Source: an uncultured delta proteobacterium
Lineage (GTDB): Bacteria; RBG-13-61-14; DRUE01
DNA length: 43,576 nucleotides
Assembly: GCA_903930515.1 (NCBI GenBank)
Contig: CAIYYW010000310.1
Location: forward strand, 1 to 43,576
Direction of reading: 5' to 3'
Position numbers and translations under genes: made by a program. Shown here in pieces: positions 2,096 through 41,418 of this stretch. The stretch's first letter is position 1. Each line of letters begins with the position of its first letter. The notes beneath the pieces are model-generated. The model saw only the letters and a list, made by a program, of their open reading frames with translations, did no database searches and was not told the DNA's origin.

Positions 2096-3522
2096 TTCGT
2101 TTTCAGTCCCACCGCCTGATAAAATAATTTTAGATCGCCCTGATTGATGGTCCGGGTGAGCAGGAGCAAAACCAAATAAGCCGCAAGCATCACCGGTCCA
2201 AAGATCAACAGTTTCAGCTCCAGCGTCCGCGAGACTGCCACCAGGGCCGCGGCCAGGACCACCGGCCAGGCCGAGGCTTTGAGCATCAGGAGGAAGTCCG
2301 GGCGAAAGGCCGGGAGCGCGCCGGCTAATAGGACCTGGGTGATAAAGGCGGCAAAGGTGGCGAAGCCGGCTCCGGCGATTCCGTAGATGGGGATCAAGAT
2401 CAGGTTGAGCGCGACATTTACCGCGGCGCCGGCGCCGTTGACCCAGAGCCAGGCTTTTTCTTTTCCACGCGAGAGCGCGGCGTTGAACAGGCCGTAGTAG
2501 AGAAAGATGAAGACCACTGCCGTGCTCAGCCAGAAGAGCGCGGTGTCGGCTTCCATAAAATCGGGTCCGAAGAGGAGGGAGAGGATTTGGCGGCTGAACC
2601 CGCCGAAGATGATCCAGGCGATAACCACGATGATGGTGTTATATTTATAACTGTAATGGTTGGCCTTCTCGAATGAGCGGCCGGACTCGCCCAGGTATTT
2701 GACCAGCAGGGGAAAAACCGTGAGGTACCAGGAAACGGGGATCAGCACCAGGTAATCGGTGAGATTGGCGCAGCTGCCGTAAAGCCCGACCTGGCGGGCG
2801 CCCAGGAACTGGTAGATGATCAGTTGGTCTATCCGGCTGATCACCATAATGAAGACATTGTTGAGCAGGAGGATCCAACTGGCGCGGAAGATTCCCCGGA
2901 CTTCGTGAACGGAAAAATTAAAATCCGGCCGGTATTCTTTCTTTTCCAGGCTGAGCAATGAAAAGAATAATAACTGGACCAGCCGGTATCCGAGATAAAT
3001 CCAGAAGAAAGGGAACAGGCCGAGCCGGATCAGGATGGCGATGGCGCGGCCGGATTGATAGAGGATGGCGCTTAAGCCGTCGGCCACGCTCGGCCGGAGC
3101 AGGCGCAACTCGATCTGGTGGGGCACCTGCAGGATGAAGGAGGCGTTTCCGAGCAGGCCGAGCAGGACGATGGACAGGAAGAAAACCGTCCGGGGCGGAT
3201 ATCCGAGCAGGACCGCGGCGGTGATTCCGGAAACCCATCCCAGCAGGGCCAGCCCGATCTTGATCGCCAGGCCGGCGCCGAGATATTTCCGGGTCAGCGC
3301 CGGGAATAACACCGCTTCCCGCGCCACCACCAGCTCGATCATCGGAGGGGTGAAGACATTGAGGAAAGTGAACCAGGCGAATACCAGGCTGTACACCCCG
3401 AAATTTTCCGTGCCCAAATATCGGATCAGCCAGATGGTGACCAGGAACCCGAGCAGGGAGGCGGACAGCCGCTCGAAGAGGATGATGGAATTATTGAGCG
3501 CGACTTTCCGGACCAGGCTCAT
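2092..3522 (-). CDS. polysaccharide/oligosaccharide flippase (Wzx/MOP superfamily-like), polytopic membrane protein
   Basis: 476-aa, highly hydrophobic, about 12-14 predicted TM segments. The N-terminus (NSIILFERLSASLLGFLVTIWLIRYLGTENFGVYS) is typical of polysaccharide biosynthesis (PST/Wzx) proteins. Confidence 0.8.
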   Translation of the reverse strand: MSLVRKVALNNSIILFERLSASLLGFLVTIWLIRYLGTENFGVYSLVFAWFTFLNVFTPPMIELVVAREAVLFPALTRKYLGAGLAIKIGLALLGWVSGITAAVLLGYPPRTVFFLSIVLLGLLGNASFILQVPHQIELRLLRPSVADGLSAILYQSGRAIAILIRLGLFPFFWIYLGYRLVQLLFFSLLSLEKKEYRPDFNFSVHEVRGIFRASWILLLNNVFIMVISRIDQLIIYQFLGARQVGLYGSCANLTDYLVLIPVSWYLTVFPLLVKYLGESGRSFEKANHYSYKYNTIIVVIAWIIFGGFSRQILSLLFGPDFMEADTALFWLSTAVVFIFLYYGLFNAALSRGKEKAWLWVNGAGAAVNVALNLILIPIYGIAGAGFATFAAFITQVLLAGALPAFRPDFLLMLKASAWPVVLAAALVAVSRTLELKLLIFGPVMLAAYLVLLLLTRTINQGDLKLFYQAVGLKTK

Positions 3523-5423
3523 TTCTCTGATTCCTTTGAATATTTTTCCAGGAGTTTGCCCGCATCCAAGTCCCGATATTTTTCCGAAAGCTCCTTCAGG
3601 ATCTCCAACATCTCCCTCTGCTGCCCCCGGGACAGCTTAATCCGGGCCAGTTCCCATAAGGCGGCCTGGTGATCTCCCGAGACCGCAAGGGCCTTCCGGG
3701 CAAAAGTTTCCGCCTGGACCGGGTCTCCGTTCAGGCGGTGGATCCGGGCCATCCGGACCAGCATTTCCAGGTTGTTGGGATATAATTCCAAGCCGCGTTG
3801 ATATTCCATTTCCGCGGACCGGATCCGGCCCTGCTTGAAATAATAATCAGCCAGACGCTTATGCCAGAACGCAAAACGGGGATTAAGGCCGATCGCCTTC
3901 TGAAAATATTCCTCCACCAGCGATTCCTTCTCTCCTTTTTGGGTCGCGCTGAAAGCCAGGAGTGCGTAAGCGTAATCATCGCCCGGAATTATTGACAGGG
4001 CCTTTTGGGCATAAGAGCGGCCCTGGTTGAGATCGCGCGCGTTGAAAAAAGATTGAGCCTTCAGGATCGCCCTTTGCTCGGCGAACACCCATCCGGCCCC
4101 CAGGCCGAGGACGGCGATCAGGAGCGCGAGGCCGGCCCGGGAGAGCCGGGATACTTTTTGGGATGAGGCGGGGAAGAGTTGGATCGTGATCGCGGCGAGC
4201 AGGGCGAAAGAGAGCGAAGCCAGCTCCGGGGCGTAGAGATCGAAATCCCAAAGCCAGTGAGACCAGAGGACCAACAGAGCGGCAAAGATGCTGTTCAGGA
4301 GAGGGTCTTTCCGGGCAAGAATTTTTCGGAACGCGAGCAAGGGAGATAAAATCAGCGCCAGCAATCCGGCTAACGCGGCCGGGCCGGCCTCGGCCAGGAC
4401 CTGGATGAAATTGTTGTGCGCGTACCTGACTTCGTTGGACCGGGCCTGTCGGTATTTGGGATAGGCGATCCAGAAATTGCCCAGCCCGACTCCGAGCCAG
4501 GGCTTTTCGCGAAAGACCTGAAGGCCGGCCTGGAAATTATAAAGTCTTAGGATAACCGGGTTGGATTCGCCCTGAAAGATATTCGCCCTCCGGCGATAAG
4601 CGAAGATGGATAGGACCGAGGCCGCGGTCAAAAAGATCAGGATCAAGGAGACGATATTTTTTTTGGAAAAGAGGGAACTGGAAAACCGGAGCGCGACCAG
4701 GACGGCGATCCCGATCAGGAAGGAAAGGAATCCGCCGATGGATTTGGACAGGAGCATCGGGATCAAAAGCAAAAGCGCGATCAGGGAGGCCGCACTTAGA
4801 TAAAGGCTTTGTTGCTTTCGGCCGGACCGGACATTTTTTTCAACCAGTCCGATCCAGAGGATCAGGGCTGCGGCGAGGAATACGGAGAAGAAATCCGGGG
4901 AAAAGGTCAGTCCGAAAATTCTTTTCATTCCAACCTGTTCCAAACCGGCCAGGTTGGCGTTCCCGCTGATTTGCACCATGCTCTCCAGGCCTCCGAAGTA
5001 TTGCCGAAGCCCGGCCAGGGATTGGATGATGGCGGCGAGGATAATGATGGAAAGCAATTGATCCGGTTCCTGATGGTTCAGTATTTCCAGGCCGGAGAGC
5101 AGGATAAACAAATAACCCAGGAAGATCACCAGTTCTCGGCCGCTGGAAAGGGGCTGGATGCCGAAGGGCATAGACAGGATCAAGGAGGCGAAGAACAATC
5201 CCAAGCCGATCTTGAGCAGGCGGGGGATGGGGAAAGCGGATTTGGAAAAAAGCAGCGCCAGGAGATATGCGAGGGAGAACCAGGCCAGGAAGATATAATT
5301 GGACCAGTAATAAATCCGGCCGGAGATCAGGCATCGCAGGAGCAGGCCGGACAAGAAAAATATTTCCAGGAATTTGGGCGCGGAATTTTCATCCAATTTT
5401 TTTCCCGCCAAAGGCTCAGGCAA
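3519..5423 (-). CDS. O-antigen ligase/polymerase-like (Wzy_C-type) membrane protein fused to C-terminal TPR repeats
   Basis: 634-aa ORF. The N-terminal ~430 aa are polytopic, with a large loop typical of the O-antigen ligase family. The C-terminal ~190 aa show TPR-like repeats (e.g. AEMEYQRGLELYPNNLEMLVRMARIH, AETFARKALAVSGDHQAAL). Confidence 0.75.
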   Translation of the reverse strand: MPEPLAGKKLDENSAPKFLEIFFLSGLLLRCLISGRIYYWSNYIFLAWFSLAYLLALLFSKSAFPIPRLLKIGLGLFFASLILSMPFGIQPLSSGRELVIFLGYLFILLSGLEILNHQEPDQLLSIIILAAIIQSLAGLRQYFGGLESMVQISGNANLAGLEQVGMKRIFGLTFSPDFFSVFLAAALILWIGLVEKNVRSGRKQQSLYLSAASLIALLLLIPMLLSKSIGGFLSFLIGIAVLVALRFSSSLFSKKNIVSLILIFLTAASVLSIFAYRRRANIFQGESNPVILRLYNFQAGLQVFREKPWLGVGLGNFWIAYPKYRQARSNEVRYAHNNFIQVLAEAGPAALAGLLALILSPLLAFRKILARKDPLLNSIFAALLVLWSHWLWDFDLYAPELASLSFALLAAITIQLFPASSQKVSRLSRAGLALLIAVLGLGAGWVFAEQRAILKAQSFFNARDLNQGRSYAQKALSIIPGDDYAYALLAFSATQKGEKESLVEEYFQKAIGLNPRFAFWHKRLADYYFKQGRIRSAEMEYQRGLELYPNNLEMLVRMARIHRLNGDPVQAETFARKALAVSGDHQAALWELARIKLSRGQQREMLEILKELSEKYRDLDAGKLLEKYSKESEK

Positions 5424-6183
5424 AATCCCTCCGATCCAGGATCAGGCCGGCCAGGACCAGGATCAAGGCCGCGGTGAGAATCCCGAGCAGGATAGCGAGG
5501 GCGAAAGCGCGCGCCGGCATAATGTCCCCGTAAGTGGCGTTCTCTAGCCAGCTATAGTTGGACAGGTTGGGGAGGGCGTAATAAAGGGCCTGGCTGAAAT
5601 ATCTCAGAGCGGGTTTTCCCGCGTGCTCTCCGAAGGACTTGATGTCTGCGGTGAGATGTCCGATCACGAACAGGGAAAGGGTGAAGATGGCGGAAAGGGT
5701 GGGGGTGGTGAAGGTTGAGAAGAACAGCGCGATCGCCACCACGATCAGGAGCTTGACCAGGATCAGGATCAGGGCTTGGGCCTGGGACCAGGTGAAATGC
5801 CCGCCCAGGTAATACAGCACGACTAAATAAACCGCAACCATAATCGCCAGGTTGACCAGGATGGTCACAACCAGGCCGAGATATTTTCCCAGCATAAACG
5901 CCGACCGGGACACCGGCTTGGAGAGCAGGGCGTAAATGGTTCGGCGCTCGATCTCCTTGCTCACCAGGGAGATTCCGAGGAAGATGGCGATCAAACTTCC
6001 GAAGATGGAAATGCCGTTCAGTCCCACATCAATGGCGATCCGGTCCCATTCTCCGGTGGAAAGCTGCACCAGGGCGATGGACATCAGGATCATAATCAGG
6101 GCGAAGACGAGCAGGTTATACAGGATTCGGTCCCGGATATTTTCCCGGAAGGTGTTGAGGGCGATCACCCAGATTTTTTTCAT
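5416..6183 (-). CDS. ABC-2 type transporter permease
   Basis: 255-aa ORF with 6 predicted TM segments. The N-terminus (KIWVIALNTFRENIRDRILYN) is typical of ABC-2/NosY-like permeases. 4-nt overlap with the upstream ATPase gene. Confidence 0.85.
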   Translation of the reverse strand: MKKIWVIALNTFRENIRDRILYNLLVFALIMILMSIALVQLSTGEWDRIAIDVGLNGISIFGSLIAIFLGISLVSKEIERRTIYALLSKPVSRSAFMLGKYLGLVVTILVNLAIMVAVYLVVLYYLGGHFTWSQAQALILILVKLLIVVAIALFFSTFTTPTLSAIFTLSLFVIGHLTADIKSFGEHAGKPALRYFSQALYYALPNLSNYSWLENATYGDIMPARAFALAILLGILTAALILVLAGLILDRRDFA

Positions 6184-7118
6184 TCCTGCTTGCTCGCCTC
6201 CACGATTTTCCAGAAATAATCCTCCAGGCTTTGCCGATGCGCGAAATATTCCTGGAGCGATCCTCCCCGGTCCAGGATGGTTTTTACCAGCGTCATGGAT
6301 TTTTCTTCGTCGGTCATCCGGATCAGGGCCTGATCCGCCTGCCAGGACAGGGTCAGCTCCCCGGCCCGGGCTTTCCCTTCCAGGTCTTGCTTCAGGTCCG
6401 GCGATTTAATCCGGGCCTGGATTTCCCAGCTCTGGATGGTCGCGGAAGAGAGCTCCCGCACCGGCCCCACCTTGAGCAGCTTTCCCTGGTGGATGATCCC
6501 GACCCGGTTGCAGATCACTTCCACATCGCTCAAGATATGGGTGTTGAAAAAGACCGTCTTGCCCTCCTGGCCCAGACGCGCGATCAAGTCCCGGATTTCC
6601 TTCCGGCCGATCGGGTCCAGCCCGCTCATCGGCTCGTCCAGGATCACCAGCTCCGGATCGTTGATCAGTGCCTGGGCCAGCCCGATCCTCTGGAGCATGC
6701 CCTTGGAATATTTACGCAGCGCCAGATCCCTCGCCCGGTTCAGCCCGACCTGGTCCAGCAGGCGATTGACGCGCGATCGGCGCTCCCGATGACTGAGCGG
6801 GAAGAAGCGGGCGCATAAATTCAGGAATTCCTCGCCGGAAAGATACTGGTAAAAATCCGGCTGTTCGGGCAGGAACCCGATCCGGTTTTTGCTCTCCACC
6901 GTTCCCGCGGGCTTGCCCATCAGAAAGGCCTTGCCGGAGCCGGGCTTGAGCAGTCCGGCCAGGATTTTGATGGTGGTGCTTTTACCCGCGCCGTTGGGTC
7001 CGAGGAACCCGAAGATTTCTCCCTTTCCAACCTCCAGGCTCAATCCCTGCAGGGCCTTCACCTGCTTCCGGAAAAAGCCGGAGTAAAAAGTCTTATGCAA
7101 GTTTTCGATTCTGATCAT
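6180..7118 (-). CDS. ABC transporter ATP-binding protein
   Basis: 312-aa ORF with Walker A GPNGAGKST, signature-like YSKGMLQR and Walker B LVILDEP. Confidence 0.93.
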   Translation of the reverse strand: MIRIENLHKTFYSGFFRKQVKALQGLSLEVGKGEIFGFLGPNGAGKSTTIKILAGLLKPGSGKAFLMGKPAGTVESKNRIGFLPEQPDFYQYLSGEEFLNLCARFFPLSHRERRSRVNRLLDQVGLNRARDLALRKYSKGMLQRIGLAQALINDPELVILDEPMSGLDPIGRKEIRDLIARLGQEGKTVFFNTHILSDVEVICNRVGIIHQGKLLKVGPVRELSSATIQSWEIQARIKSPDLKQDLEGKARAGELTLSWQADQALIRMTDEEKSMTLVKTILDRGGSLQEYFAHRQSLEDYFWKIVEASKQE

Positions 7119-7987
7119 TTTTCAAATGCCTTGGGACGATATACCCCCAGGTAATATTCTTTGGTGCTCCGCGCCTGATGGGTTCCCGCGTCTATATAAT
7201 ATTGTCCGCCAAACGGGTCCGAAGGCAATTGCGACGGAGCGATCAAGCCGGAATCCGTCAGGTCCTGAATCCGGTTTGGGTATTTCTGATAGGTTTGATT
7301 ATACTCCGCGATTTTTTGATTGAGGAAATCCAATTGCTTCCTTTGCTGGATCCCGTTCGTCATATCCTGGATGGAATTGCTCCAGGCTTGGTTCCGGCTG
7401 CCCTTGGACAGTTCGTCCAGGATGGATTGACTCAGTTCCAGGTTTCCCTTCTCGGCCAAAATCCGCGTGGCCAAAAGCCCGTACGGCCGGTAGCCGGAAA
7501 GCTGGTAGGCTTTCCGGAAAGATTCCGCGGCCCTCTGGGTGTCGCCGATAAAATAGTAATTGACGATCCCGAGCAGGAACGCGATATCCTTGCTGGCGGG
7601 GAGGTTCTTTTCCCCTTTTTCCAGGAGTGCCAGGTTTTTCGCCGGGTTGATCTGATTGACGATCATAATCACTGACGGATAATAATAGGCTTCCAGGAAC
7701 CGGGGAGAGAGGTCGGTCACGAAATCCGCGTAACGGCAGATCTCGACCGGCGGGTTTTTTTGAGCGAGGTTGGCTCCCAGGTACTGGATGGTTTTGAGCC
7801 AGTAAAAATCAGCGACCAAATTGATGTGTCCCAGGCTCAACGGCCGGACCAGGAAGGGCTTGGGAAAAATCAGCAGGGTCTGCTCCCGCGCCGTCTCGGT
7901 CTGGCCGCTCAGGTCCCTCCGGTTCTGGAGGAAGGCCATACTGGCGAATAGCAGGACGGCCAGAAGGGACATCGCCAACCGGTTCAT
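7115..7987 (-). CDS. secreted/periplasmic hypothetical protein with helical-repeat region and GspG-like C-terminal motif
   Basis: The ORF track gives 7115..8065. The internal Met at 7987 begins a signal-peptide-like MNRLAMSLLAVLLFASMAF and shares a TAATG stop/start overlap with the upstream gene. The C-terminus (YPNRIQDLTDSGLI...DPFGGQYYID) resembles the type II secretion pseudopilin G globular domain. Confidence 0.7.
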   Translation of the reverse strand: MNRLAMSLLAVLLFASMAFLQNRRDLSGQTETAREQTLLIFPKPFLVRPLSLGHINLVADFYWLKTIQYLGANLAQKNPPVEICRYADFVTDLSPRFLEAYYYPSVIMIVNQINPAKNLALLEKGEKNLPASKDIAFLLGIVNYYFIGDTQRAAESFRKAYQLSGYRPYGLLATRILAEKGNLELSQSILDELSKGSRNQAWSNSIQDMTNGIQQRKQLDFLNQKIAEYNQTYQKYPNRIQDLTDSGLIAPSQLPSDPFGGQYYIDAGTHQARSTKEYYLGVYRPKAFEK

Positions 7988-8538
7988 TATTTTTCCTCGA
8001 AGAACTCGGGCAGGAAATGGATTCCGAGCTCCACCGGTTTTTCCGGGCGGAGATGCGCGACCCATCTGCCCAGTTCCTGGGCCAGCAGTTCGGCGAGCTC
8101 AAACCCGGCATACAATTTTACCCGGTCCAGGGGCTGATCCACCAAGGCCCGGAGAACGGCCTCGGAAAATTCCTTGATCGTGAAATTCCCGCGGTAGAGG
8201 TCGCTGATCGCCAATCCGCAATTGCGGGCGCCGGCCCGGGCGAGCTTGCGGCAGGCCTGGTCCAGCCATCCCGCGACCTGATCGAGGCTCAGGTTCCGGC
8301 TTTGCTTGAGCGCGATCAGGAAAATCTGGGGGGCCAGTTGCCGGTTGAAATCAATCAGGAGCCAGTCTCCATTCCCTTCAAACAACTCCTGGAGCGCGAG
8401 CCCGCTGATCAATCCCTTGAGCCGGAAGTCCATCCGGCCGGTCTCTCCCCGCGGGGGCATCTGATCCAAAAAAACCGGCAGGGCGATGGTTTCCCGCAAC
8501 GACCAGTCCGGAGGGTAGGCGCAGGCGACGACCCTCAT
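7987..8538 (-). CDS. hypothetical protein (183 aa), no recognisable family
   Basis: Long ORF in the operon frame, 4-nt overlap with nusB upstream and 1-nt overlap with the downstream gene. No motif recognised by eye. Confidence 0.6.
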   Translation of the reverse strand: MRVVACAYPPDWSLRETIALPVFLDQMPPRGETGRMDFRLKGLISGLALQELFEGNGDWLLIDFNRQLAPQIFLIALKQSRNLSLDQVAGWLDQACRKLARAGARNCGLAISDLYRGNFTIKEFSEAVLRALVDQPLDRVKLYAGFELAELLAQELGRWVAHLRPEKPVELGIHFLPEFFEEK

Positions 8539-8972
8539 TGCCTTTCCACCTTGCGGATTTTGCCGGACTTGACCAGGCTTTTTAAAACCTGGTCCAGGAT
8601 CCCGTTGATGAAGGCGCCGGATTCGCTTGAGCCGAATTTTTTGCCCAGCTCGATCGCCTCGTCAATGGTCACCTTGCAGGGGATATCTTCCATTTCCAGC
8701 AATTCAAATATGGCCACGCGCAAAATATTACGGTCAATCCGGCTCATCCGGGACAGTTTCCAATGCTCGGAATGTTTTTCAATCAATTGATTTATTTCTT
8801 CCTGCCGGCGCCCCGTCCCCTCCACCAGTTTTTGGGAGAATTCCCGGGTTTCCTCGCCCACCTTCTGCTCCTCCCAGAACATCTCCAAGCCAGGCGCGTC
8901 CACGCCTGCGTGAAAATCCACCTGGTATAATGCCTGGAGCGCCAGCTCCCGGGCTTTGCGTCTTTTGCCCAT
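8535..8972 (-). CDS. nusB: transcription antitermination factor NusB
   Basis: 145-aa ORF. RKARELALQALYQVDF at the N-terminus and the central and C-terminal helices are typical of NusB. Sits in the conserved position after ribH. Confidence 0.93.
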   Translation of the reverse strand: MGKRRKARELALQALYQVDFHAGVDAPGLEMFWEEQKVGEETREFSQKLVEGTGRRQEEINQLIEKHSEHWKLSRMSRIDRNILRVAIFELLEMEDIPCKVTIDEAIELGKKFGSSESGAFINGILDQVLKSLVKSGKIRKVERQ

Positions 8973-9008
8973 TTTAGTTGGTTTTCAAGGAACTTAGACC
9001 ACGACTTT

Positions 9009-9470
9009 TCAAATTTGTTTGAAGATTTGGGCCAGCTCCACTGCAGACATCGCCGCGGCAAATCCTTTATTCCCGTTTTTGGTTCCCGCCCGCTCAATCG
9101 CCTGCTCGAGCGTATCCGCGGTGATCACCCCGAAAGTCACCGCCACTCCGGTTTCCATCCCGGTCTGGGCGATCCCCTTGGTCACTTCCGCGGCCAAATA
9201 TTCAAAATGAGGGGTCTGCCCCCGGATCAACGCTCCCAGGCAGATCACCGCGTCATATTTTCCGCTCTTGGCCAGCTTGTACCCGGCCTGGGGAATTTCA
9301 AACGAGCCCGGCACCCGCACCACCACGATCTCGTTCTTGTTGGCGCCCAGTCGCTCCAGCCCGTCCAGGCATCCCTCCAGGAGCCGGCTGGTGATCAGTT
9401 CATTGAACCGGCTGACCACCACTCCGAATTTCAGTCCCTTCGCCTCCAGCTTGCCAATTATCTCTTTCAA
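9009..9470 (-). CDS. ribH: 6,7-dimethyl-8-ribityllumazine synthase
   Basis: 153-aa [33 protein letters not shown] and [17 protein letters not shown] are characteristic of RibH. Confidence 0.95.
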
Positions 9471-9472
9471 GT

Positions 9473-10726
9473 TTACCTCCTCTCCTTCTCCCTCGGATTT
9501 AGATTGAGCAGATGCCCCAGCTTTTCCTTTTTGGTCGTAAGGTAGCTCAGGTTCCGCTCATTTGGACTGACCTCTATCGGAACCCGCTCCGTGATCTCCA
9601 TCTCGAAGCCCTCCAAGGCCACAATTTTTTTCGGGTTATTGGTCAGCTCCCGCATCCGGCGCACGCCCAAGTCAATCAGGATTTGCGCGCCGATCCCGTA
9701 ATCGCGCAGGTCGGCCGCGAACCCGAGCGCCAAATTGGCCTCCACCGTGTCCATCCCCTGGTCCTGGAGCATATAGGCCTTGAGCTTGTTCAAAAGGCCG
9801 ATGCCCCGTCCTTCCTGGCGAAGGTAAACCAGGACCCCCTTGCCCTCCTTCGCGATCATCGCCATCGCCCGATGCAGTTGGTCTCCGCAATCGCAGCGGA
9901 GCGATCCGAAAATATCCCCGGTCAAACATTCGGAATGGACCCGGGCCAAAATATTATCTTCCGGAAGAATCTCTCCCTTGACCAGGGCCAGATGAATATC
10001 CGGGCTGACATCGCTCTGGTAAGCGACCACTTTCCATTCCCCCCATTCCTGGGTGGGAAGGAAGGTCTCGGCCGCGCGATGGACCAGACGCTCGGTTTTC
10101 ATCCGATACTTGATCAGGTCCGCGATAGTGACGATCCGGAGATCGTGTTCTTCCGCGAACTTGAGCAAATCCGGCATCCGAGCCATGGTGCCGTCATCCT
10201 TCATAATCTCGCAGATCACGCCCGCGGGCTTGAGTCCGGCCAGCCGGCACAAATCCACCGACCCTTCGGTTTGACCGGTGCGGACCAAAACCCCGCCCTC
10301 GCGCGCCCGGATCGGGAAGATATGCCCGGGCCGGACCAGGTCCTCGGCGCGGGCGTTGTCCGCGATCGCGGCCTGGATGGTCCGGCTGCGGTCATAGGCG
10401 CTGATCCCGGTGGTGACTCCCTCGCGGGCCTCGATGGAAACGGTGAAGGCGGTTCCGAACCGGCTCTGGTTCTCGTTCACCATCAGCGGCAATCGAAGCT
10501 GCTCCACCTTATCCCCGGTCATCGTCAGGCAGATCAATCCCCGCCCGAACCGGGCCATAAAGCTGATCGCTTCCGGGCTTACCTTCTCCGCGGCGACCAT
10601 CAGGTCTCCCTCGTTCTCCCGGTTCTCGTCATCCACCAGGATGATCATCTTCCCATGACGTATCAACTCGATCGCCTGCTCAATCGAGGCCAGCCGGGGG
10701 GTTTCTTCCGAATGACCTTTGCTCAT
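9473..10726 (-). CDS. ribBA: bifunctional 3,4-dihydroxy-2-butanone-4-phosphate synthase / GTP cyclohydrolase II
   Basis: 417-aa ORF. The DHBP synthase half carries [12 protein letters not shown]. The GCH-II half carries [21 protein letters not shown] and [10 protein letters not shown]. Confidence 0.96.
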
Positions 10727-10729
10727 CTT

Positions 10730-12175
10730 TTATTTTTTTGGCTCCCTTGCTTTTCTGCTCAAATATGTGGTCCGGATATGAAGCATATTATACCGGACAA
10801 TTTCCCGCCATTTCAGACGGTGGACCCTACCGTAATCCACCGCGAAACTGAACAGAAATATTATATCAAACAACGGGTTTTTCGGCAACTTGACCAGCCA
10901 GGGAATCAATTTTTCCCAAAGCCCTGAATGGAACCCGAGCAGGAATAGTTTATGAAGGTTTTCCAGGCGATCCGTGTCCGGCTGGCGGAATGGGCTGAAA
11001 GCGAAGTAGCTCAAGTCCTTTCCACTCGGATGCCCCGGCTTTTTCAAGCGGCCCTCTTGTTCCATCTGCTCGGTCAGGCGGGCGCCGGGAAAGGGCTGGA
11101 ACAGAGACCCGACCGCGAACTCGTTTTTAAGCTTCCGGTTATAGCTCAAAGTCTTCAGGCCCTTCGCCAGCGTGTCCCCCGGATAGTTGAGCATATTGTA
11201 GCTCTGGAGCTGGATCCCGGCCTGATGCAAAACCTCAACTCCCCGCTCAATCTGAGCGTCACTCATTTTCCGGTTAAGAATTTTTTCCCGGTCAAAAGCG
11301 TCCGCGCTCTCCAGTCCGTAGAACAAAACATAGCAGCCGCCCTCTTTCAACAGGCGCGCTTTTTCCTCCGTGATCTGGTCAATCCGGCCGGTGCAGAAAA
11401 AGGGAATCCCGATTTCCCGGCGGTAGCGCGGCAGGAATTTTTCCAGCCATTCCTGGTCATAGCTGAACAGGTCGTCGTTGAATCCGATGGTGCGGCCTGG
11501 AGCTCGCGAGATCACCCCTTTGATCTCCTCCAGCAAATAATCCGCGGATTTGAATCGCAGATAGCAATCCCGGTTCGGGTAAATCTTCCGCAGACCCAGG
11601 TTCGCGCAATAGCTGCACGCGAACGGACAGCCCCGGCTGGCCATAAAAAATTTGATCGGGTAGTCCCGGAAATATGGGTACCGCGAAAAATATAGCTCCT
11701 TGTCCGGAACCGCCAAACGATCCAGGTTTTCAACCAACGGCCCCACCGGGTTTTCAAAAATCCTTACGCCCTGGCGCGCCCACAAATTTTCTATGCCCGT
11801 GTAATCCTCTTTCCGGCTCAAGGCCTCGGCCAGCCGAACCATCGCCTGTTCCCCTTCCCCGCGCAAAACCAGGTCCACCGATTGGTTGTGGATGATTTCC
11901 GGGAAAAAGGTCGGGTCAACCCCGCCGAAAATGGTCAGGGTCTGGAGCCTCCCCTTGACCGCCTTGGCCCAGGCCAGGGCCGGTTCACGCTCAACCGATA
12001 CGACCGGGAAGCCGACCAGGTCGGGCTGGAACTTTGCTATTTTCGCGAGCGGGCTTTTTTCAAAAAAAGGTATGATCAGCCGGGTCTGATGACCGGCCCG
12101 CTTAAGCTCTCCGGCCAAAGCCTCCAGGCCGTGAAGCTCGTATTCGTTAAGTTGGATGAAAACTATCTTTGACAT
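10730..12175 (-). CDS. radical SAM enzyme with N-terminal B12-binding-type domain, embedded in the rib operon
   Basis: 481-aa ORF. N-terminal Rossmann-like segment (IVFIQLNEYELHGLEALAGELKRAGH ... DLVGF). CxxxCxxC cluster motif ASRGCPFACSYCAN. Only 3 nt separate it from the ribBA start and 13 nt from the ribE stop. Confidence 0.85.
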   Translation of the reverse strand: MSKIVFIQLNEYELHGLEALAGELKRAGHQTRLIIPFFEKSPLAKIAKFQPDLVGFPVVSVEREPALAWAKAVKGRLQTLTIFGGVDPTFFPEIIHNQSVDLVLRGEGEQAMVRLAEALSRKEDYTGIENLWARQGVRIFENPVGPLVENLDRLAVPDKELYFSRYPYFRDYPIKFFMASRGCPFACSYCANLGLRKIYPNRDCYLRFKSADYLLEEIKGVISRAPGRTIGFNDDLFSYDQEWLEKFLPRYRREIGIPFFCTGRIDQITEEKARLLKEGGCYVLFYGLESADAFDREKILNRKMSDAQIERGVEVLHQAGIQLQSYNMLNYPGDTLAKGLKTLSYNRKLKNEFAVGSLFQPFPGARLTEQMEQEGRLKKPGHPSGKDLSYFAFSPFRQPDTDRLENLHKLFLLGFHSGLWEKLIPWLVKLPKNPLFDIIFLFSFAVDYGRVHRLKWREIVRYNMLHIRTTYLSRKAREPKK

Positions 12176-12188
12176 CTATTATAAAAGA

Positions 12189-12818
12189 TCAAAAGCCTTC
12201 TTCTTTCAAACGCTCCAGGCTTAAAGCCCCGCGGCCTTTGCCCAGGAACTTCTCCACATATTTCCCCAGCAGGTCCGCCTCCAGGTTGACCGGGTCCCCG
12301 ACTTTCTTCCCGCCCAGCGCAGTCCGCTTCAAGGTTTCCGGGATCAGCATCACCGAGAACACCCGGCCGGAAACCCGGTTGATGGTCAGGCTGATCCCGT
12401 CAATCGCGATCGCCCCTTTTTCCACCAGGTATCTCTTCAAATCCTCCGGAGCCTCCAGTTCCCATTCCTGGAACTCCCCGGCCCGGCTCAGCTTTTTTAT
12501 TTTGCCCACTCCGTCAATATGCCCGAGCACGAAATGCCCGCCCAGCCGGTCCGACAGTTTCAGCGCGCGCTCCAGGTTCACCCTCTCTCCGACCTTTCTG
12601 GACTGGAAAGTGGTCCGGGATAAACTCTCCTTGCTCAATCCCACCCAGAAAGAATTCCCGGATTTTGACGCCACCGTGAAGCAGGCGCCGTCCACCGCCA
12701 CCGAATCGCCCAAAGCCGTTTGGAAATCTTTTCCCGGCTCGACCAGGATTTTTTTCCCGCTCGAGAGCGGCTGGATCCGGGAGATGGTTCCGACTCGTTC
12801 AATCAATCCCGTGAACAT
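12189..12818 (-). CDS. ribE: riboflavin synthase (alpha chain)
   Basis: 209-aa ORF starting MFTGLIERVGTI, with the duplicated lumazine-binding repeats (GDSVAVDGACFTV / GAIAIDGISLTI). Confidence 0.95.
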   Translation of the reverse strand: MFTGLIERVGTISRIQPLSSGKKILVEPGKDFQTALGDSVAVDGACFTVASKSGNSFWVGLSKESLSRTTFQSRKVGERVNLERALKLSDRLGGHFVLGHIDGVGKIKKLSRAGEFQEWELEAPEDLKRYLVEKGAIAIDGISLTINRVSGRVFSVMLIPETLKRTALGGKKVGDPVNLEADLLGKYVEKFLGKGRGALSLERLKEEGF

Positions 12819-12819
12819 C

Positions 12820-13908
12820 TCACACCTCGTGGAGGAACGCGGTTAAGAGGAAATCGTTTCCGATCCGCCGGAGTTCCGGCTGATACAGAGGCAAAGCCTG
12901 ATCCAGCCGGCGCGGAATTTTGCCCGCGATCATCGCTCTTGATTCTTCGTCCGCCAATATTTTCGGCGCGTAAAAAAACGCGATCTCGTCCACCAGCCCC
13001 TGGTCCAAAAGCGACCCCGCCAGTTCCGCCCCGCCCTCGCATAAGACGCTCGCGATCCGGATCTTTCCCAGCCGGGTCATCAATTCCTTTAAATTCACCC
13101 GCCCATTTTGATCGCTCCTGGTTTCAATAATCCGCACCCCCAGCCGGGCGAGTTCAATTTTTTTTCTCGCCCCGGCCTTGCTCGAGCAGGCGATCAGGGC
13201 CGGAGATTGAAAGGCCCGGGCAACAACCGGAGTCCGCAGAAAGCCGTCCACGATCAACGGCATCGGTTGATGAGCCTTGCCCTGGAGACGGGCCGTGAGC
13301 GATGGGTCGTCCTTGAGCGAGGTGCCCGCTCCCACCATCACCACTTGGACCTTGCTCCGGAGCCGGTGAACATATTTCCGCGCCGGCTCCCCGGTGATCC
13401 ATTTGGAAGTCCCGCTCCGGTCCGCGATCCTTCCGTCCGCGGTCGCGGCCAGCTTCAGGATCAGCCAGGGTTTTCCGGTGGTAATGTATTTCACAAAATG
13501 CCGGTTGAGCACGCGACATTCCGGTTCCAGGATTCCGCTCACCACCTCGATCCCGGATGCCTTCAGTTTCCGGAATCCCCTCCCGGAAACCAGCGGGTTT
13601 GGGTCCCTCATCCCGGCCACTACTTTTTTCACCCCGGAACGGATCACCAATTCCGCGCAAGGCGGGGTTCGGCCCCAGTGGGAACAAGGCTCCAGGTTCA
13701 GCACCAGGGTGGAGCCGCGGGAACGGCTCCCGGCTTTTTGGAGCGCCTTCACTTCCGCGTGCGGCTCTCCCGGTTTTTCAAAGTATCCCTCGGAAACGAT
13801 CCGGCCGGATTTCACCACCAGCGCCCCCACCATCGGGTAATGCTCGGTCCCTCCCTCGGCCTTTCGCGCCAGGTAAAGCGCCCGCTTCATCAATGGCTCA
13901 TAATCCAT
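12820..13908 (-). CDS. ribD: bifunctional diaminohydroxyphosphoribosylaminopyrimidine deaminase / 5-amino-6-(5-phosphoribosylamino)uracil reductase
   Basis: 362-aa ORF. Deaminase zinc motifs HAEVKAL and PCSHWGRTPPC. C-terminal reductase half (WLILKLAATADGRIA). Confidence 0.95.
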   Translation of the reverse strand: MDYEPLMKRALYLARKAEGGTEHYPMVGALVVKSGRIVSEGYFEKPGEPHAEVKALQKAGSRSRGSTLVLNLEPCSHWGRTPPCAELVIRSGVKKVVAGMRDPNPLVSGRGFRKLKASGIEVVSGILEPECRVLNRHFVKYITTGKPWLILKLAATADGRIADRSGTSKWITGEPARKYVHRLRSKVQVVMVGAGTSLKDDPSLTARLQGKAHQPMPLIVDGFLRTPVVARAFQSPALIACSSKAGARKKIELARLGVRIIETRSDQNGRVNLKELMTRLGKIRIASVLCEGGAELAGSLLDQGLVDEIAFFYAPKILADEESRAMIAGKIPRRLDQALPLYQPELRRIGNDFLLTAFLHEV

Positions 13909-13913
13909 TTCCG

Positions 13914-14396
13914 TTATTTCCCGGATTTGGCCTTCTCCTGCTTCTGCCGGTCCAGCAATTCCTTCAACTCGTCCATAAACTGGTTGATGTCCTTGAACGA
14001 CCGATACACGCTGGCAAACCGCACATAGGCCACATGGTCCAGGTGATACAGCTCCCGCATCACTTCCTCGCCCACCACGGTGGACGCGATTTCCTTCTCC
14101 CCGCTCTCCAGCAGCTTATGCTCAATCTTGTCCACCACCTTCTCCAAAGTGGTGATGCTGATCGGCCGCTTCTCGCAGGCCTTTTTCAGCCCGAGCAAAA
14201 TCTTCATCCGGTCAAACGGCTCCCTCCGTCCGTCCTTCTTGATCACCAGCGGCATCACCTCTTCCACTCGCTCGTAGGTGGTAAAGCGCCGGCTGCATTC
14301 CATGCACTCACGGCGCCTTCGGATCACGGCGCCATCCTTGCTTAGCCTGGAATCAATCACGCGGTTGTCCAGGTCTCCGCAAAACGGGCACTTCAT
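13914..14396 (-). CDS. nrdR: transcriptional repressor NrdR (zinc ribbon + ATP-cone)
   Basis: 160-aa ORF. MKCPFCG...VIDSR...[17 protein letters not shown] zinc ribbon followed by an ATP-cone. Confidence 0.95.
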
Positions 14397-14866
14397 CTTT
14401 TTCCCTCCTCAAACTTGATTATTTGGATCCCGGCCTCCTTGATCAAAGCCCGCGCCAGCCGGTCCGGGTAGCCTTCTCCATAAATAATTTTCTTGATCCC
14501 CGCGTTGATCAGCATCTTCACGCAGATACTGCAGGGAAGGTTGGTGGCATAGAGGCTGGAGCCTTTGATCGGAACCCCGTGATACGCCGCCTGGATGATC
14601 GCGTTCTGCTCCGCATGCAAGCCCCGGCAAAGCTCCGCCCGCTCCCCCGATGGAATCTCCCGCTCCTCCCGCAAACACCCAACCTCGTAACAATGCTTCA
14701 ACCCGCTCGGCGCCCCGTTATATCCGGTGGACAGTATCCGCTTTTCCTTAACCAGGATCGCCCCCACCGACCTCCGCATACAGGTGCTCCGCCGGCTTAC
14801 CAGCTTCGCCAGCTCCAGGAAATATTGATCCCAGCCCGGCCGCACCAGAGTTTTCCTCTTCATCAT
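14393..14866 (-). CDS. deoxycytidylate (dCMP) deaminase, ComEB-type
   Basis: 157-aa ORF. Cytidine/deoxycytidylate deaminase zinc motifs HAEQNAI and [10 protein letters not shown]. Confidence 0.9.
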
Positions 14867-14871
14867 CTTTA

Positions 14872-14900
14872 ATTTATCATCATTATCCGGTTATTTCCAA
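14872..14900 (-). promoter_or_regulatory. candidate sigma70-type promoter of the dCMP deaminase-nrdR-rib array (possibly leaderless)
   Basis: On the minus strand: TTGGAA, 17-nt spacer, ATAAAT, then only TAAAG before the first ATG (14866). No Shine-Dalgarno is visible. Confidence 0.3.
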
Positions 14901-14933
14901 TTCCAGAGTCTGCCGGGCAAATCTCTTTTTGGG

Positions 14934-14981
14934 GCGCGGGCATCTTGCCTGCGCGCCAATCAGCGGGCGGGAATCCCGCCC
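14934..14981. repeat. two adjacent GC-rich hairpins (REP-like)
   Basis: GCGCGGGC-ATCTT-GCCTGCGC (14934..14954; 8 bp including one G-T pair) and GGGCGGG-AAT-CCCGCCC (14965..14981). The first resembles the hairpins at 43468..43553, including the shared upstream TGGGGCGC context. Confidence 0.5.
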
Positions 14982-15002
14982 CACAATTTTTCTCGCTGGC
15001 TT

Positions 15003-15045
15003 AAGAAAGAAAAAGGGCGCTTGAAAGATCAAGCGCCCTTTTTCC
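15003..15045 (-). terminator. rho-independent terminator (bidirectional architecture)
   Basis: Perfect 10-bp stem GGGCGCTTGA / TCAAGCGCCC with a 4-nt loop, an A-run on one side and a T-run on the other. On the minus strand it follows the 23-codon ORF. Confidence 0.8.
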
Positions 15046-15131
15046 GAACCCAACGGCTCCTAATTAAGCGCTCCGCTCACCTCTGCAAAAAGGCCTGCTC
15101 CAATTTCTTGGACCAGGGTTAGGTGTTTGGC

Positions 15132-15203
15132 TTACTTTCTCTTTTTGGTTTTCTTGACGGCTTTTTTCTTCGCTACTTTTTTGTGCGCTTTTCCACAGAC
15201 CAT
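15132..15203 (-). CDS. 23-aa polybasic micro-protein (MVCGKAHKKVAKKKAVKKTKKRK)
   Basis: ATG at 15203 is preceded by GAAAGGAGAAACACA (GGAG 7 nt upstream). TAA stop at 15132-15134. The strong terminator at 15003..15045 lies downstream. The longer 62-aa track ORF (from 15320) would start inside a terminator hairpin. Confidence 0.45.
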   Translation of the reverse strand: MVCGKAHKKVAKKKAVKKTKKRK

Positions 15204-15286
15204 TGTGTTTCTCCTTTCTTTAAGATTGGTTTTAGACTTGGTACCCCAAAATTCCCGCGATGAGTGGAGCTCTTTTTCGCGCGTGT

Positions 15287-15328
15287 ATAAAAAAACCGGA
15301 GAGGAAGGCATGGCCTTCATTTCTCCGG
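15287..15328 (-). terminator. rho-independent terminator on minus strand with no annotated gene directly upstream
   Basis: Minus strand reads CCGGAGA-AAT-GAAGGC-CAT-GCCTTC-C-TCTCCGG followed by TTTTTTT: 13 bp of stem plus a T7 tract. Confidence 0.65.
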
Positions 15329-15649
15329 CAATCGGTTCGTCCTGTCTCTATCTCGCTCAATCCGGGCTCTCTCTTTCTCCACCACCACCCGGGACTCATC
15401 CTTTTCTTAGTATGCCATATTTTTCAAAGCTTGTAAAGGAAAAAATGCATTCCCCCTCATTTTTTTTCAAACCCCGAAAAACGCCTCTGCCGGGAAATTT
15501 GGGCCCTAAAACGCTCCCGGCAAAATTGGCAACGGCAAAAGCGCCGGAATTGACGACTTAAAACTTAAGGCCCGGTCCTAAATGTAATCTATATTACAAA
15601 TGCCCAAGGCCGGCGCGGCCAGGCTCGGTCGGCGTCGGCCGGGGCGGCC

Positions 15650-15677
15650 TTGACAGTCGCGGGAAAGGTTTTAAAAT
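15650..15677 (+). promoter_or_regulatory. candidate sigma70 promoter of tRNA-Arg
   Basis: TTGACA (15650-15655), 16-nt spacer, TAAAAT (15672-15677). The tRNA 5' end lies 10 nt downstream. Confidence 0.5.
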
Positions 15678-15686
15678 AAGGAGCAA

Positions 15687-15762
15687 GGGCGATTAGCTCA
15701 GTGGATAGAGCACCGGCCTCCGGAGTCGGTTGTCGCGGGTTCAAATCCCACATCGCCCTCCA
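15687..15762 (+). tRNA. tRNA-Arg (anticodon CCG), CCA encoded
   Basis: 76 nt. 7-bp acceptor GGGCGAT/ATCGCCC, D-arm GCTC AGTGGAT AGAGC, anticodon stem CCGGC/GTCGG with loop CTCCGGA (CCG), T-loop TTCAAAT (one C-A mismatch in the T-stem), discriminator T, then CCA. Confidence 0.9.
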
Positions 15763-15834
15763 GAAAAAGATCCCCGCAAGTTCGTGTCCTGCCTTGATGC
15801 AAAGGGTTAGTCCGAGTCGTCCTATTTTCCGCCG

Positions 15835-17316
15835 CTATTCCGGCCGGAGGAGCGGGAAGGGGATGACTTCTCGGATGCTGGGGGAATCGGTCAGGAACAT
15901 TGTAAGGCGGTCAATCCCGATACCTTCTCCGGCGCAGGGGGGCATTCCGATTTCCAGGGCCTGGATGAAGTCTTCGTCAATGGGATGGGCTTCCTCGTCG
16001 CCTTTGGCTTTGGCCCGGGCCTGCTCTTCAAAGCGTTTCCTTTGATCAGCCGGGTCGTTGAGTTCGCTGAAGGCATTGGCGACTTCTTTCCCGGCGATGA
16101 TCAATTCAAACCGGTCGGTGACTTCGGGGTCTTGTTCATTGCGCCGGCTGAGCGGAGAGACTTCCACCGGGAACTGGGTGATGAAGGTGGGGTTGAGGAT
16201 TTCGTGCTCCACGGCTTGTTCAAAAACCGCGGTCAGGGCTTTTCCCCAGCCGTCGCCTTCCAGGAGTTTGAGGCCTTTTTGCTTGAGCCAGTTTTTGGTG
16301 GCCAGTCCTTGCCGGATTTCTTCTTTGCTCAGGCCGAGCTTTTTGGCGACCGCGTCTTCCATTGTGATCCGGGCAAAGGGGGGCGTGAAGTCCAGCTCTT
16401 TTTCCTGAAAGGAGATTTTGAGTTGGCCTCGGATTTGTTGAAGCAGGCTGACCAGCATTTCCTCGCTCAGCTTGATCAGGTCTTCATAATCCGCGTATGC
16501 CAGGTAGAACTCCAGCATGGTGTATTCCGGGTTATGCCAGGTGCTGATGCCCTCGTTTCTAAAGCAGCGTCCGATTTCATAGACGCGCTCAAAGCCTCCC
16601 ACCACCAGCCGTTTGAGATGAAGCTCGGTGGCGATGCGGAGGTATAAATCAATGTCCAGGGCGTTGTGGTGAGTGACAAAGGGCCTGGCCAGGGCGCCCC
16701 CGGGGATGGATTGCAGGATCGGGGTTTCCATTTCAATGAAGCCGCGGTCTTCCAAAAATTTCCGGATCTGGCTGATAATCGCGGCGCGGGTTTGGAAAAT
16801 TTCCCGGACCTTCGGAGTCGCGACCAAATCCACATAGCGCTGCCGGTATCGGGCTTCCACATCCTTGAGCCCATGCCATTTTTCCGGGAGCGGCCGGATG
16901 GATTTGGTGACCAGGATCAGGTCTTTGGAGTAAATGGTGAGCTCGTTGGTCCTGGTGCGGAAGGCCTTTCCGGAAACGCCGATGAAGTCGCCGACATCCA
17001 GTTGCTTGAGCAGCCATTGCTTTTCCTCGCTCAGGTCGGTTCGATTGAGGTAGATTTGGATTTCGCCGGTGCGGTCTCGGAGCCCGAGAAAATTGACCTT
17101 GCCCATAAAGTTTAGCCGGACAATCCTTCCGGCCACCGAGAACTCTTCTTCAATCTTCTCAATTTCTTCCTTGCCCAATGAATCCAGCCTGGCCCTGATT
17201 TCGCCGATCTGGTTCTTCGGCTTGAACCGGTTGAAATAGGGATTGACGCCGCGCTCGCGGATTTTTTCTATCTTCTGGTAGCGCTGGGAGATTATTTCCG
17301 GCTTATCCTCGTTCAC
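15835..17316 (-). CDS. lysS: lysine--tRNA ligase (class II)
   Basis: 493-aa ORF. N-terminal OB-fold region and class II catalytic core (FIEMETPILQ, CFRNEG, GIGIDRL). Confidence 0.96.
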   Translation of the reverse strand: MNEDKPEIISQRYQKIEKIRERGVNPYFNRFKPKNQIGEIRARLDSLGKEEIEKIEEEFSVAGRIVRLNFMGKVNFLGLRDRTGEIQIYLNRTDLSEEKQWLLKQLDVGDFIGVSGKAFRTRTNELTIYSKDLILVTKSIRPLPEKWHGLKDVEARYRQRYVDLVATPKVREIFQTRAAIISQIRKFLEDRGFIEMETPILQSIPGGALARPFVTHHNALDIDLYLRIATELHLKRLVVGGFERVYEIGRCFRNEGISTWHNPEYTMLEFYLAYADYEDLIKLSEEMLVSLLQQIRGQLKISFQEKELDFTPPFARITMEDAVAKKLGLSKEEIRQGLATKNWLKQKGLKLLEGDGWGKALTAVFEQAVEHEILNPTFITQFPVEVSPLSRRNEQDPEVTDRFELIIAGKEVANAFSELNDPADQRKRFEEQARAKAKGDEEAHPIDEDFIQALEIGMPPCAGEGIGIDRLTMFLTDSPSIREVIPFPLLRPE

Positions 17317-37879: not shown

Positions 37880-37881
37880 TT

Positions 37882-39186: not shown

Positions 39187-39217
39187 AATTTCTCCTGTTT
39201 TTTCCGGTTAGTATCGC

Positions 39218-41357: not shown

Positions 41358-41418
41358 TTTTCCCTTCTTCTTCGTGGCGCGTCCCGCGTATTCCGCGGGA
41401 TTGTCTGCGTCCGCAGTT

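Follow-up and report, generated by a model that had tools for sequence, protein, structure and literature searches.

The riboflavin operon and its additional gene

The 43,576-nucleotide stretch of DNA considered here (contig CAIYYW010000310.1 of GenBank assembly GCA_903930515.1, from an uncultured delta proteobacterium), referred to in its whole length as the window, contains a riboflavin biosynthesis (rib) operon in which a gene for a 481-residue radical S-adenosylmethionine (SAM) protein is situated between ribE and ribBA. The protein is predicted to be of the class-B (cobalamin-domain) type, and a non-flavin, carbohydrate-type substrate is considered slightly more likely for it than a metabolite of the flavin pathway. 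The open reading frame (ORF) begins with ATG and lies on the minus strand in the order deoxycytidine monophosphate (dCMP) deaminase-nrdR-ribD-ribE-radical SAM gene-ribBA-ribH-nusB, with the flanking genes verified by Pfam:

14393-14866, minus strand: dCMP deaminase, which opens the co-directional array (Pfam)
13914-14396, minus strand: nrdR, an operon resident with a function unrelated to flavin synthesis (Pfam)
12820-13908, minus strand: ribD, deaminase/reductase (Pfam)
12189-12818, minus strand: ribE, riboflavin synthase with two Lum_binding domains (Pfam)
10730-12175, minus strand: predicted class-B-type (cobalamin-type) radical SAM protein, 481 residues (Pfam, AlphaFold2 model, Foldseek)
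9473-10726, minus strand: ribBA, 3,4-dihydroxy-2-butanone 4-phosphate (DHBP) synthase/GTP cyclohydrolase II (Pfam)
9009-9470, minus strand: ribH, lumazine synthase (Pfam)
8535-8972, minus strand: nusB, an operon resident with a function unrelated to flavin synthesis (Pfam)
7987-8538, minus strand: 183-residue protein of unknown function, with a 4-nt overlap with the nusB stop

The TGA of ribE is separated from the ATG of the radical SAM gene by 13 nt, and the TAA of the latter from the ATG of ribBA by 3 nt; the ORF list, Pfam and the junction sequences agree with the gene order, the spacing and the CPFACSYC motif described in a first-pass annotation made from the sequence alone. The same annotation had taken this tight embedding as a sign of shared function, an argument that loses force in view of the wider region. 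The operon is part of a run of 16 co-directional genes (66-14866, minus strand, ~15 kb) with intergenic gaps of -79 to +36 nt throughout, which continues beyond nusB into an ABC-2 exporter, a Wzy_C/TPR ligase, a Wzx-type flippase, GT2 and GT4. Compactness is a trait of the whole region and not specific to the radical SAM gene, and short spacing around this gene is not diagnostic because the entire 15-kb array, including unrelated genes, is equally compact. The ORF itself is a real gene, with full-length homologues found down to E = 0. The RibA, RibB, RibD, RibH and RibE activities are all encoded in the operon (Pfam), so that the pathway is complete without the radical SAM protein and presents no gap for it to fill.

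Domain architecture, predicted fold and family assignment

The 481-residue protein matches both Pfam B12-binding (PF02310; 38.0 bits against a cutoff of 32.1, residues 16-115) and Pfam Radical_SAM (PF04055; 49.2 bits against a cutoff of 29.5, residues 180-338). Its CPFACSYC sequence at residues 183-190 forms a CxxxCxxC motif, the cysteines of which (C183, C187, and C190) are invariant in 29 orthologs, and the motif is also kept in at least 80% of 66 paralogs. The alignment of the 29 orthologs, which range from 477 to 488 residues, has a mean column identity of 68%, and 100 further columns are invariant in addition to the cluster cysteines.

An AlphaFold2 model built on these orthologs, with a predicted local distance difference test score (pLDDT) of 89.7 and a predicted TM-score (pTM) of 0.89, starts with a Rossmann cobalamin-like domain (~1-120) of five β-strands alternating with helices over residues 3-120. 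This is followed by a β-hairpin linker (131-141), a partial triosephosphate isomerase (TIM) barrel that forms the radical SAM core (174-358) and holds the three cysteines, a disordered loop (381-391) and a four-helix C-terminal module (401-472). The best matches returned by Foldseek from the PDB are MgmA (E = 3e-21), TsrM, CysS, TokK, AprD4, and OxsB, with query-normalized TM-scores (TMq) of 0.62-0.71; the MiaB/RimO methylthiotransferases come next after these class-B enzymes. The modeled fold is confidently that of a class-B radical SAM protein, and the N-terminal cobalamin-type domain proposed in the first-pass annotation is borne out by a Pfam score above cutoff as well as by these structural matches.

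Cobalamin is positioned in OxsB, TsrM, and TokK by a GG motif (dimethylbenzimidazole pocket; cobalamin tail) and a GE motif (PMC9204698). The probable counterparts in the present protein are G84-G85 and G106-E107, which are invariant in the orthologs and kept in most paralogs, a correspondence drawn from sequence position and predicted secondary structure and not from superposition.

Curated families were tested with NCBIfam models and their cutoffs. All 20 matches of the protein lie far under cutoff, as do those of seven paralogs tested likewise, and by this measure it belongs to no characterized family; the profile searches proposed with the first-pass annotation thus place it outside every well-characterized subfamily. 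The candidates rejected on these scores are HpnJ (TIGR03471; 80.9 bits against a cutoff of 577.6), the PhpK family P-methyltransferase (TIGR04479; 80.7 against 600), BchE (TIGR02026; 72.9 against 481, with no bacteriochlorophyll genes in the window), the B12 lower-ligand biosynthesis radical SAM protein BzaD (TIGR04385; 53.1 against 450), the AprD4 family diol dehydratase (NF033070; 35.1 against 500), and the methyl-coenzyme M reductase (MCR) glutamine C-methyltransferase MgmA (TIGR04014; 28.8 against 360, though it is the best structural match). The names "BchE" and "YgiQ" given to some Joint Genome Institute (JGI) homologues are automatic annotations that the scores do not support. There are no mcr genes among the annotated ORFs of the window, where the mcr context was not separately examined. 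Sequence matches in the PDB are weak, at 37 bits for AprD4 (over the radical SAM core), 32 bits for TokK, and 24 bits for MgmA.

Orthologs, paralogs and their genomic contexts

Homologues of the protein can be divided into an ortholog tier of 50-75% identity (~40 clusters at 90% identity; ~20 distinct loci), a tiny sister tier of ~41% identity, and a very large paralog tier of 32-38% identity. In an exhaustive HMMER scan of 1.84 billion representatives of 50%-identity clusters, one representative with a score of 825 bits stands for all the orthologs; the runner-up reaches only 469 bits, and scores of 353 bits or higher are seen for more than 150 representatives. This makes the rib-embedded subfamily rare and sharply delimited.

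A neighborhood census comprised 97 fetched loci, in the first 92 of which rib, nrdR, and nusB genes were located by tblastn. RibBA is encoded immediately 3' of the radical SAM gene in every locus of at least 50% identity whose downstream flank was covered, and ribE is found 5' of it in nearly all ortholog loci; gene tables show the same arrangement (P0002, P0012, P0029, P0030, P0031, and P0155, the last starting from RibBA). The flanks of the ~66 census loci with a paralog of 32-41% identity are free of rib, nrdR, and nusB genes. Rib genes are likewise missing from six paralog contexts that were inspected (L011, L012, L093, L094, L097, and second copies within them). Further radical SAM genes are present in all six, and five of the six have further ones of the B12 type. 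In most of them there are also genes for GT9, PMT_2, a Wzx-type flippase, a carbamoyltransferase, class I methyltransferases, or an epimerase together with a transketolase. These look like clusters for the modification of glycoconjugates or polysaccharides.

Some ortholog loci deviate from the arrangement seen in the window but keep the radical SAM gene next to ribBA. In L008, a carbamoyltransferase, a sulfotransferase, and a GHMP kinase stand 5' of the radical SAM gene in place of ribD and ribE. In L003 (38% GC), only the last 27 codons of ribE (5905-5985) are found directly 5' of the gene, preceded by unrelated sequence; this locus was initially a candidate for a radical SAM gene without ribE upstream, which was dropped since the terminal codons remain, and it represents either a genuine rearrangement or a chimeric contig of a metagenome-assembled genome (MAG). 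In L025, an unrelated 1.8-kb insert (2402-4227) separates ribBA from ribH and encodes a 397-residue AAA-ATPase-like ORF and a 270-residue ORF that look like mobile- or defence-type cargo. The rib operon therefore tolerates unrelated inserts, since foreign genes are carried between ribBA and ribH in this locus.

Origin and inheritance

The carriers of the gene are uncultured bacteria, mostly from sediment-labelled metagenomes, and form a clade that is old and diverse, given a GC content of 38-65% and NusB identities down to 50%. Neighbor-joining trees, which are distance-based and without support values, were made for the radical SAM protein and for concatenated NrdR, RibD, RibE, RibBA, RibH, and NusB. 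Both recover the same two subclades (A, which includes the window, and B), and the carriers are monophyletic in both. An insert-free operon (L096) is the outgroup to the carriers and is related to that of the window at 72% identity for RibBA, 56% for NrdR, 41% for RibD, and 38% for NusB; RibBA is too conserved to place the lineage taxonomically, as 70-72% identity already spans Syntrophus, Desulfobacterales, and Spirochaetes. The divergence of the radical SAM protein keeps step with that of RibD and RibE, and the GC content at third codon positions (GC3) of its gene in the window is 0.68, with neighboring genes at 0.65-0.81.

The simplest history would be a single insertion into the rib operon followed by vertical descent, because the trees are congruent, the insert-free operon is the outgroup, the protein diverges as RibD and RibE do, and its GC3 is native. 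Recent horizontal transfer of the gene is rejected on account of the GC3 within the range of its neighbors and of the congruent trees. No independent recurrence of the linkage in unrelated lineages was found, all carriers belonging to one clade and one 50%-identity cluster. The conserved position alone is thus weak evidence of shared function, as it can be traced to one insertion, and the operon concerned has unrelated genes in it as well. The gene-neighborhood survey recommended by the first-pass annotation accordingly gave a divided answer: rib embedding is kept in all orthologs (50-75% identity), but these represent one lineage and apparently one insertion in place of independent associations, and homologues of at most 41% identity are found in clusters of the polysaccharide type that contain more than one radical SAM gene.

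Two further genes are peculiar to this clade. The first is an orphan ORF of ~255 residues located between ribE and the radical SAM gene in four loci:

5228-5992 of L009: ~255-residue orphan ORF
3730-4491 of L095: ~255-residue orphan ORF
576-1346 of L021: ~255-residue orphan ORF
4226-4996 of L022: ~255-residue orphan ORF

Both of the deep branches in subclade B have this companion, subclade A has none, and the original insert may have been a two-gene cassette of the radical SAM gene and its companion. The companion family comprises only 12 clusters among 5.8 billion proteins. As a clue to function it proved a dead end, with a weak Imm32 Pfam match under cutoff, a poor AlphaFold2 model (pLDDT 68.6, pTM 0.40), and Foldseek matches that are all at E = 0.14 or worse. 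The second is the gene for the 183-residue protein, which has a weak Peptidase_M17_N-like match. A homologue (27-78% identity) follows nusB in most carriers with enough downstream flank, the gene is not present in the insert-free operon, and by its distribution it appears as a second clade-specific addition to the operon.

Signature residues of the rib-embedded subfamily

Orthologs and paralogs have in common C261, C281, R181, N192, R207, D234-D235, R264, E289, and R296, and the C-terminal helical module of the paralogs carries a motif related to that of the orthologs. The two groups are distinguished at the following positions:

Position 15: His in orthologs, Leu in paralogs
Positions 62-63: Glu-Arg in orthologs, x-His in paralogs
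Position 87: Asp in orthologs, His within "GGxH" in paralogs (61/66)
Position 452: His in orthologs, Glu in paralogs
Position 466: His in orthologs, Asn in paralogs
Positions 469-471: Thr-Thr-Tyr in orthologs, varied in paralogs

The codons for H15, E62-R63, and D87 lie at about 11915-12133 of the minus strand in the window. The sister tier of 41% identity, whose cluster includes several radical SAM genes but lacks rib genes, has H15, D87, and the Glu-Arg pair and is without the C-terminal signature. The cofactor domain was therefore remodeled before the rib operon captured the gene, and the changes at the C-terminus fall together with that capture.

OxsB, TsrM, and TokK bind a cobalamin that is both base-off and His-off, and their β1-α1 "His loop" is without a histidine (PMC9204698). 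An invariant His15 is unusual in this light, since the solved class-B "His loops" contain none. The substitutions at positions 15 and 87 could reflect a remodeled, perhaps His-on, cobalamin site, which leaves open a binding mode that would be new among the class-B structures solved so far.

Regulatory elements and other features of the window

The window and 12 related loci were searched for an FMN (flavin mononucleotide) riboswitch (RF00050) at the gathering threshold, and region 8400-15900 also at E≤1, and none was found; nor did the window or the 12 loci show, at that threshold, any other Rfam element within the operon or ahead of it. There is no intrinsic terminator at the ribE-radical SAM or the radical SAM-ribBA junction, in keeping with a transcript shared with the rib genes, and we infer such co-transcription. 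Neither the start of the radical SAM gene nor that of ribBA is preceded by a strong Shine-Dalgarno sequence at the canonical distance. Two pairs of sigma-70-like hexamers, TTGCCG-17-TATAAT (extended TG) and CTGAAA-18-TATAAT, lie within the 3' end of the radical SAM gene (10787-10888, minus strand), ~60-160 nt 5' of ribBA; as consensus matches only, they could form a candidate internal promoter for ribBA and ribH.

A GC-rich hairpin with a T-run is present 5' of the operon start (14965-14981, plus strand, and 15005-15052, minus strand), and gives sub-threshold Rfam matches to CsrC and to the plastid psbA 3' untranslated region. It is most likely the terminator of the adjacent unit and not a riboswitch.

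Elsewhere in the window (37283-42231, minus strand), consecutive genes encode a GNAT acetyltransferase, two SRPBCC proteins, a PIG-L family deacetylase, and a xylose-isomerase-like TIM-barrel protein. The SRPBCC (Polyketide_cyc) pair are tandem paralogues of 434 and 438 residues, and the row may constitute a small-molecule or a thiol/glycoside pathway.

Proposed function and alternatives

It is proposed that the 481-residue protein would be a functional, lineage-restricted class-B-type enzyme, the gene for which would have been inserted once between ribE and ribBA in the ancestor of the clade and carried vertically since, transcribed with the operon and with no riboswitch control detected. A [4Fe-4S] cluster on C183, C187, and C190 would cleave SAM reductively to yield a 5'-deoxyadenosyl radical, which would take hydrogen from an unactivated carbon, and the N-terminal Rossmann domain would hold methylcobalamin, the methyl group of which would most likely be transferred next. 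The substrate would most likely be of the sugar or polyol type, and not a canonical riboflavin intermediate, because the gene descends from a paralog family found in polysaccharide and glycoconjugate clusters. The protein would then be a stable passenger in a very stable operon, as opposed to a sixth riboflavin enzyme.

A substrate unrelated to flavin synthesis, with the gene as a passenger perhaps linked to envelope glycan, is tentatively assigned a probability of about 0.45. It agrees with an operon that houses the unrelated genes nrdR, nusB, and that for dCMP deaminase, and that accepts inserts, as in L025. Also in its favor are the continuation of the array of the window into an exporter, a ligase, a flippase, GT2, and GT4, and L008, where the radical SAM gene follows those for a carbamoyltransferase, a sulfotransferase, and a GHMP kinase. 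The alternative entertained in the first-pass annotation, that of an unrelated radical SAM gene inserted into the operon, is accordingly rated at least as likely as the flavin-type product that it had put first.

Several observations weigh against a passenger gene. The radical SAM gene is directly 5' of ribBA in every one of the ~20 distinct carrier loci, and this adjacency survives divergence to 50% identity in both the radical SAM protein and NusB and a GC content from 38 to 65%. The pair is intact where ribD and ribE are not upstream (L008) or ribE is mostly gone (L003), it persists despite the insertion of other genes nearby, and the ortholog subfamily is found in no other context in either the census or the scan of 1.84 billion representatives. 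The signatures of the orthologs (H15, D87, E62-R63, H452, H466, and TTY469-471) differ from those of the paralogs; the substrate has therefore changed and cannot simply be inferred from them. The ribityl chain and pentulose phosphate are themselves sugar-type, so that the family background would be compatible with a target in the flavin pathway. Finally, AprD4, a close structural match with the same domain layout, is a diol dehydratase and not a methylase, which bears on the proposed methyl transfer.

The alternative that survives best is tailoring within the flavin pathway, in which the enzyme methylates or rearranges an unactivated carbon of a riboflavin-pathway metabolite to give a modified flavin- or lumazine-type cofactor. 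Possible targets would be the ribityl chain or the ring of 5-amino-6-ribitylaminouracil, 6,7-dimethyl-8-ribityllumazine, riboflavin, or FMN, or else the substrate or product of RibB. This is considered plausible but less likely than not. It draws on the invariant position between ribE and ribBA, with a ribBA adjacency that outlasts rearrangements, on short junctions of which neither has an intrinsic terminator, on a subfamily confined to the rib context with its own active-site and C-terminal signature, and on a background in sugar chemistry that fits a ribityl or pentulose substrate. A single insertion with vertical inheritance, however, reduces the effective sample size to one, and this operon is host to unrelated genes in any case and open to foreign inserts. 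The pathway is also complete without the protein, and with no FMN riboswitch in the window or the 12 related loci to tie the gene to flavin regulation, the flavin, lumazine, or deazaflavin product put forward in the first-pass annotation is retained as conjecture. The literature searched links no B12-type radical SAM protein to the rib operon, ribBA, or riboflavin. A more speculative variant would be an oxygen-independent route from flavin to another cofactor fragment, e.g., benzimidazole; against it, the protein scores no more than 53 bits with the BzaD model, the cutoff of which is 450. The specific proposal that this lineage makes a new flavin-pathway derivative, with the radical SAM protein, originally paired with the 255-residue companion, C-methylating or rearranging a ribityl-pyrimidine, lumazine, riboflavin, FMN, or DHBP, is rated unlikely; if correct, the outcome would be either a novel cofactor or a way of turning intermediates of the flavin pathway, without oxygen, into a building block of some other cofactor.

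A second alternative concerns the chemistry and is compatible with either type of substrate: the Rossmann domain could be structural, and the reaction a cobalamin-independent or non-methylase one, such as the dehydration, rearrangement, or cyclization typical of AprD4, HpnJ, or BchE. AprD4 is the best sequence match in the PDB (37 bits) with Foldseek TM-scores of 0.66/0.70, the non-methylases HpnJ and BchE are among the top NCBIfam matches, and the replacement of the "GGxH" histidine (61/66 paralogs) by Asp87 in the orthologs points to a remodeled cofactor site. The GG and GE motifs are nevertheless kept (PMC9204698), the B12-binding Pfam match is above cutoff, and the structural neighbors are mostly true cobalamin methylases, all of which makes this alternative rather improbable. 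Least probable, with only a slight chance of being right, is the modification of a protein or peptide in the manner of MgmA and Mmp10, which are encoded near their target (here RibBA, RibE, RibH, or the 255-residue companion): the best structural match, MgmA, is a protein glutamine C-methylase (PMC11796369), several of the stronger NCBIfam matches of the paralogs are ribosomally synthesized peptide (RiPP) or protein methylases (ApyD, rSAM_ocin_1), and the orphan companion is co-inherited in one subclade, but the TM-scores of MgmA (0.63/0.72) are near those of the small-molecule enzymes CysS and AprD4, the companion, poorly modeled and without a fold match, is missing from the entire subclade of the window, and RibBA is unsupported as a substrate, with carrier and non-carrier proteins differing at two positions only (D243 and E360) and no distinctive insertion.

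Significance

Some of the most demanding C-H functionalizations in biology are catalyzed by class-B radical SAM enzymes, and for most subfamilies the substrates are unknown. The enzyme class dealt with here is a known one, but the literature searched has no description of this subfamily, of the residues that mark it, or of its companion gene and place in the operon. As a rare and delimited subfamily with a fixed address in a cofactor operon, it is unusually tractable, since this address narrows the riboflavin-pathway candidates to five or six metabolites. A true link to flavins would mean a new step or branch in a pathway held to be fully known and a new flavin-type cofactor in uncultured bacteria. 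A passenger gene, on the other hand, would be a documented case of a housekeeping operon that retains a passenger for a very long time, and a caution for annotation by guilt of association.

Comparison with known systems

The solved class-B enzymes MgmA (9CCB), TsrM (6WTE/6WTF), CysS (9N1B), TokK (7KDX), and OxsB (5UL3) have a three-part layout in common with the 481-residue protein, composed of an N-terminal Rossmann domain of the cobalamin type, a partial TIM barrel that bears the CxxxCxxC motif, and a cap at the C-terminus. Against these enzymes, Foldseek gives E-values from 1e-16 to 3e-21, and the protein also has the GG and GE motifs, yet sequence identity is only 12-18%. It further differs from them in the invariant His15 that ends the β1-α1 "His loop," a loop without histidine in OxsB, TsrM, and TokK (PMC9204698), and in having Asp where TokK and 61/66 paralogs have the His of "GGxH." The solved enzymes also occupy operon contexts different from that described here.

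AprD4 (6FD2), a radical SAM 1,2-diol dehydratase of aminoglycoside biosynthesis, is similar to the protein in size and fold (TMq 0.66; target-normalized TM-score, TMt, 0.70) and acts on a sugar, which agrees with the glycan setting of the paralogs. AprD4 is not known to use cobalamin. It is the best sequence match in the PDB, yet no aminoglycoside cluster is found at the present locus. HpnJ, BchE, and PhpK have the pair of B12-binding and Radical_SAM domains in common with the protein and are the highest-scoring curated models (73-81 bits), but these scores are ~7-fold under their cutoffs (481-600 bits), and the gene has no hopanoid, bacteriochlorophyll, or phosphinothricin genes nearby.

The canonical nrdR-ribD-ribE-ribBA-ribH-nusB operon of GCA_054045765.1 (L096) has the gene order and orientation of the window; unlike the window, it has nothing between ribE and ribBA and no 183-residue gene after nusB. 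The closest relatives of the inserted protein are the paralogs, a family of ~470-residue B12-type radical SAM proteins (e.g., P0050, P0057, P0063, and P0253) with full-length homology to it at 32-41% identity. The paralogs are encoded in polysaccharide-type clusters that hold several radical SAM genes, with rib genes absent from all ~70 of their loci, and a drop from 825 to 469 bits sets the orthologs apart; the orthologs reside in the rib operon.

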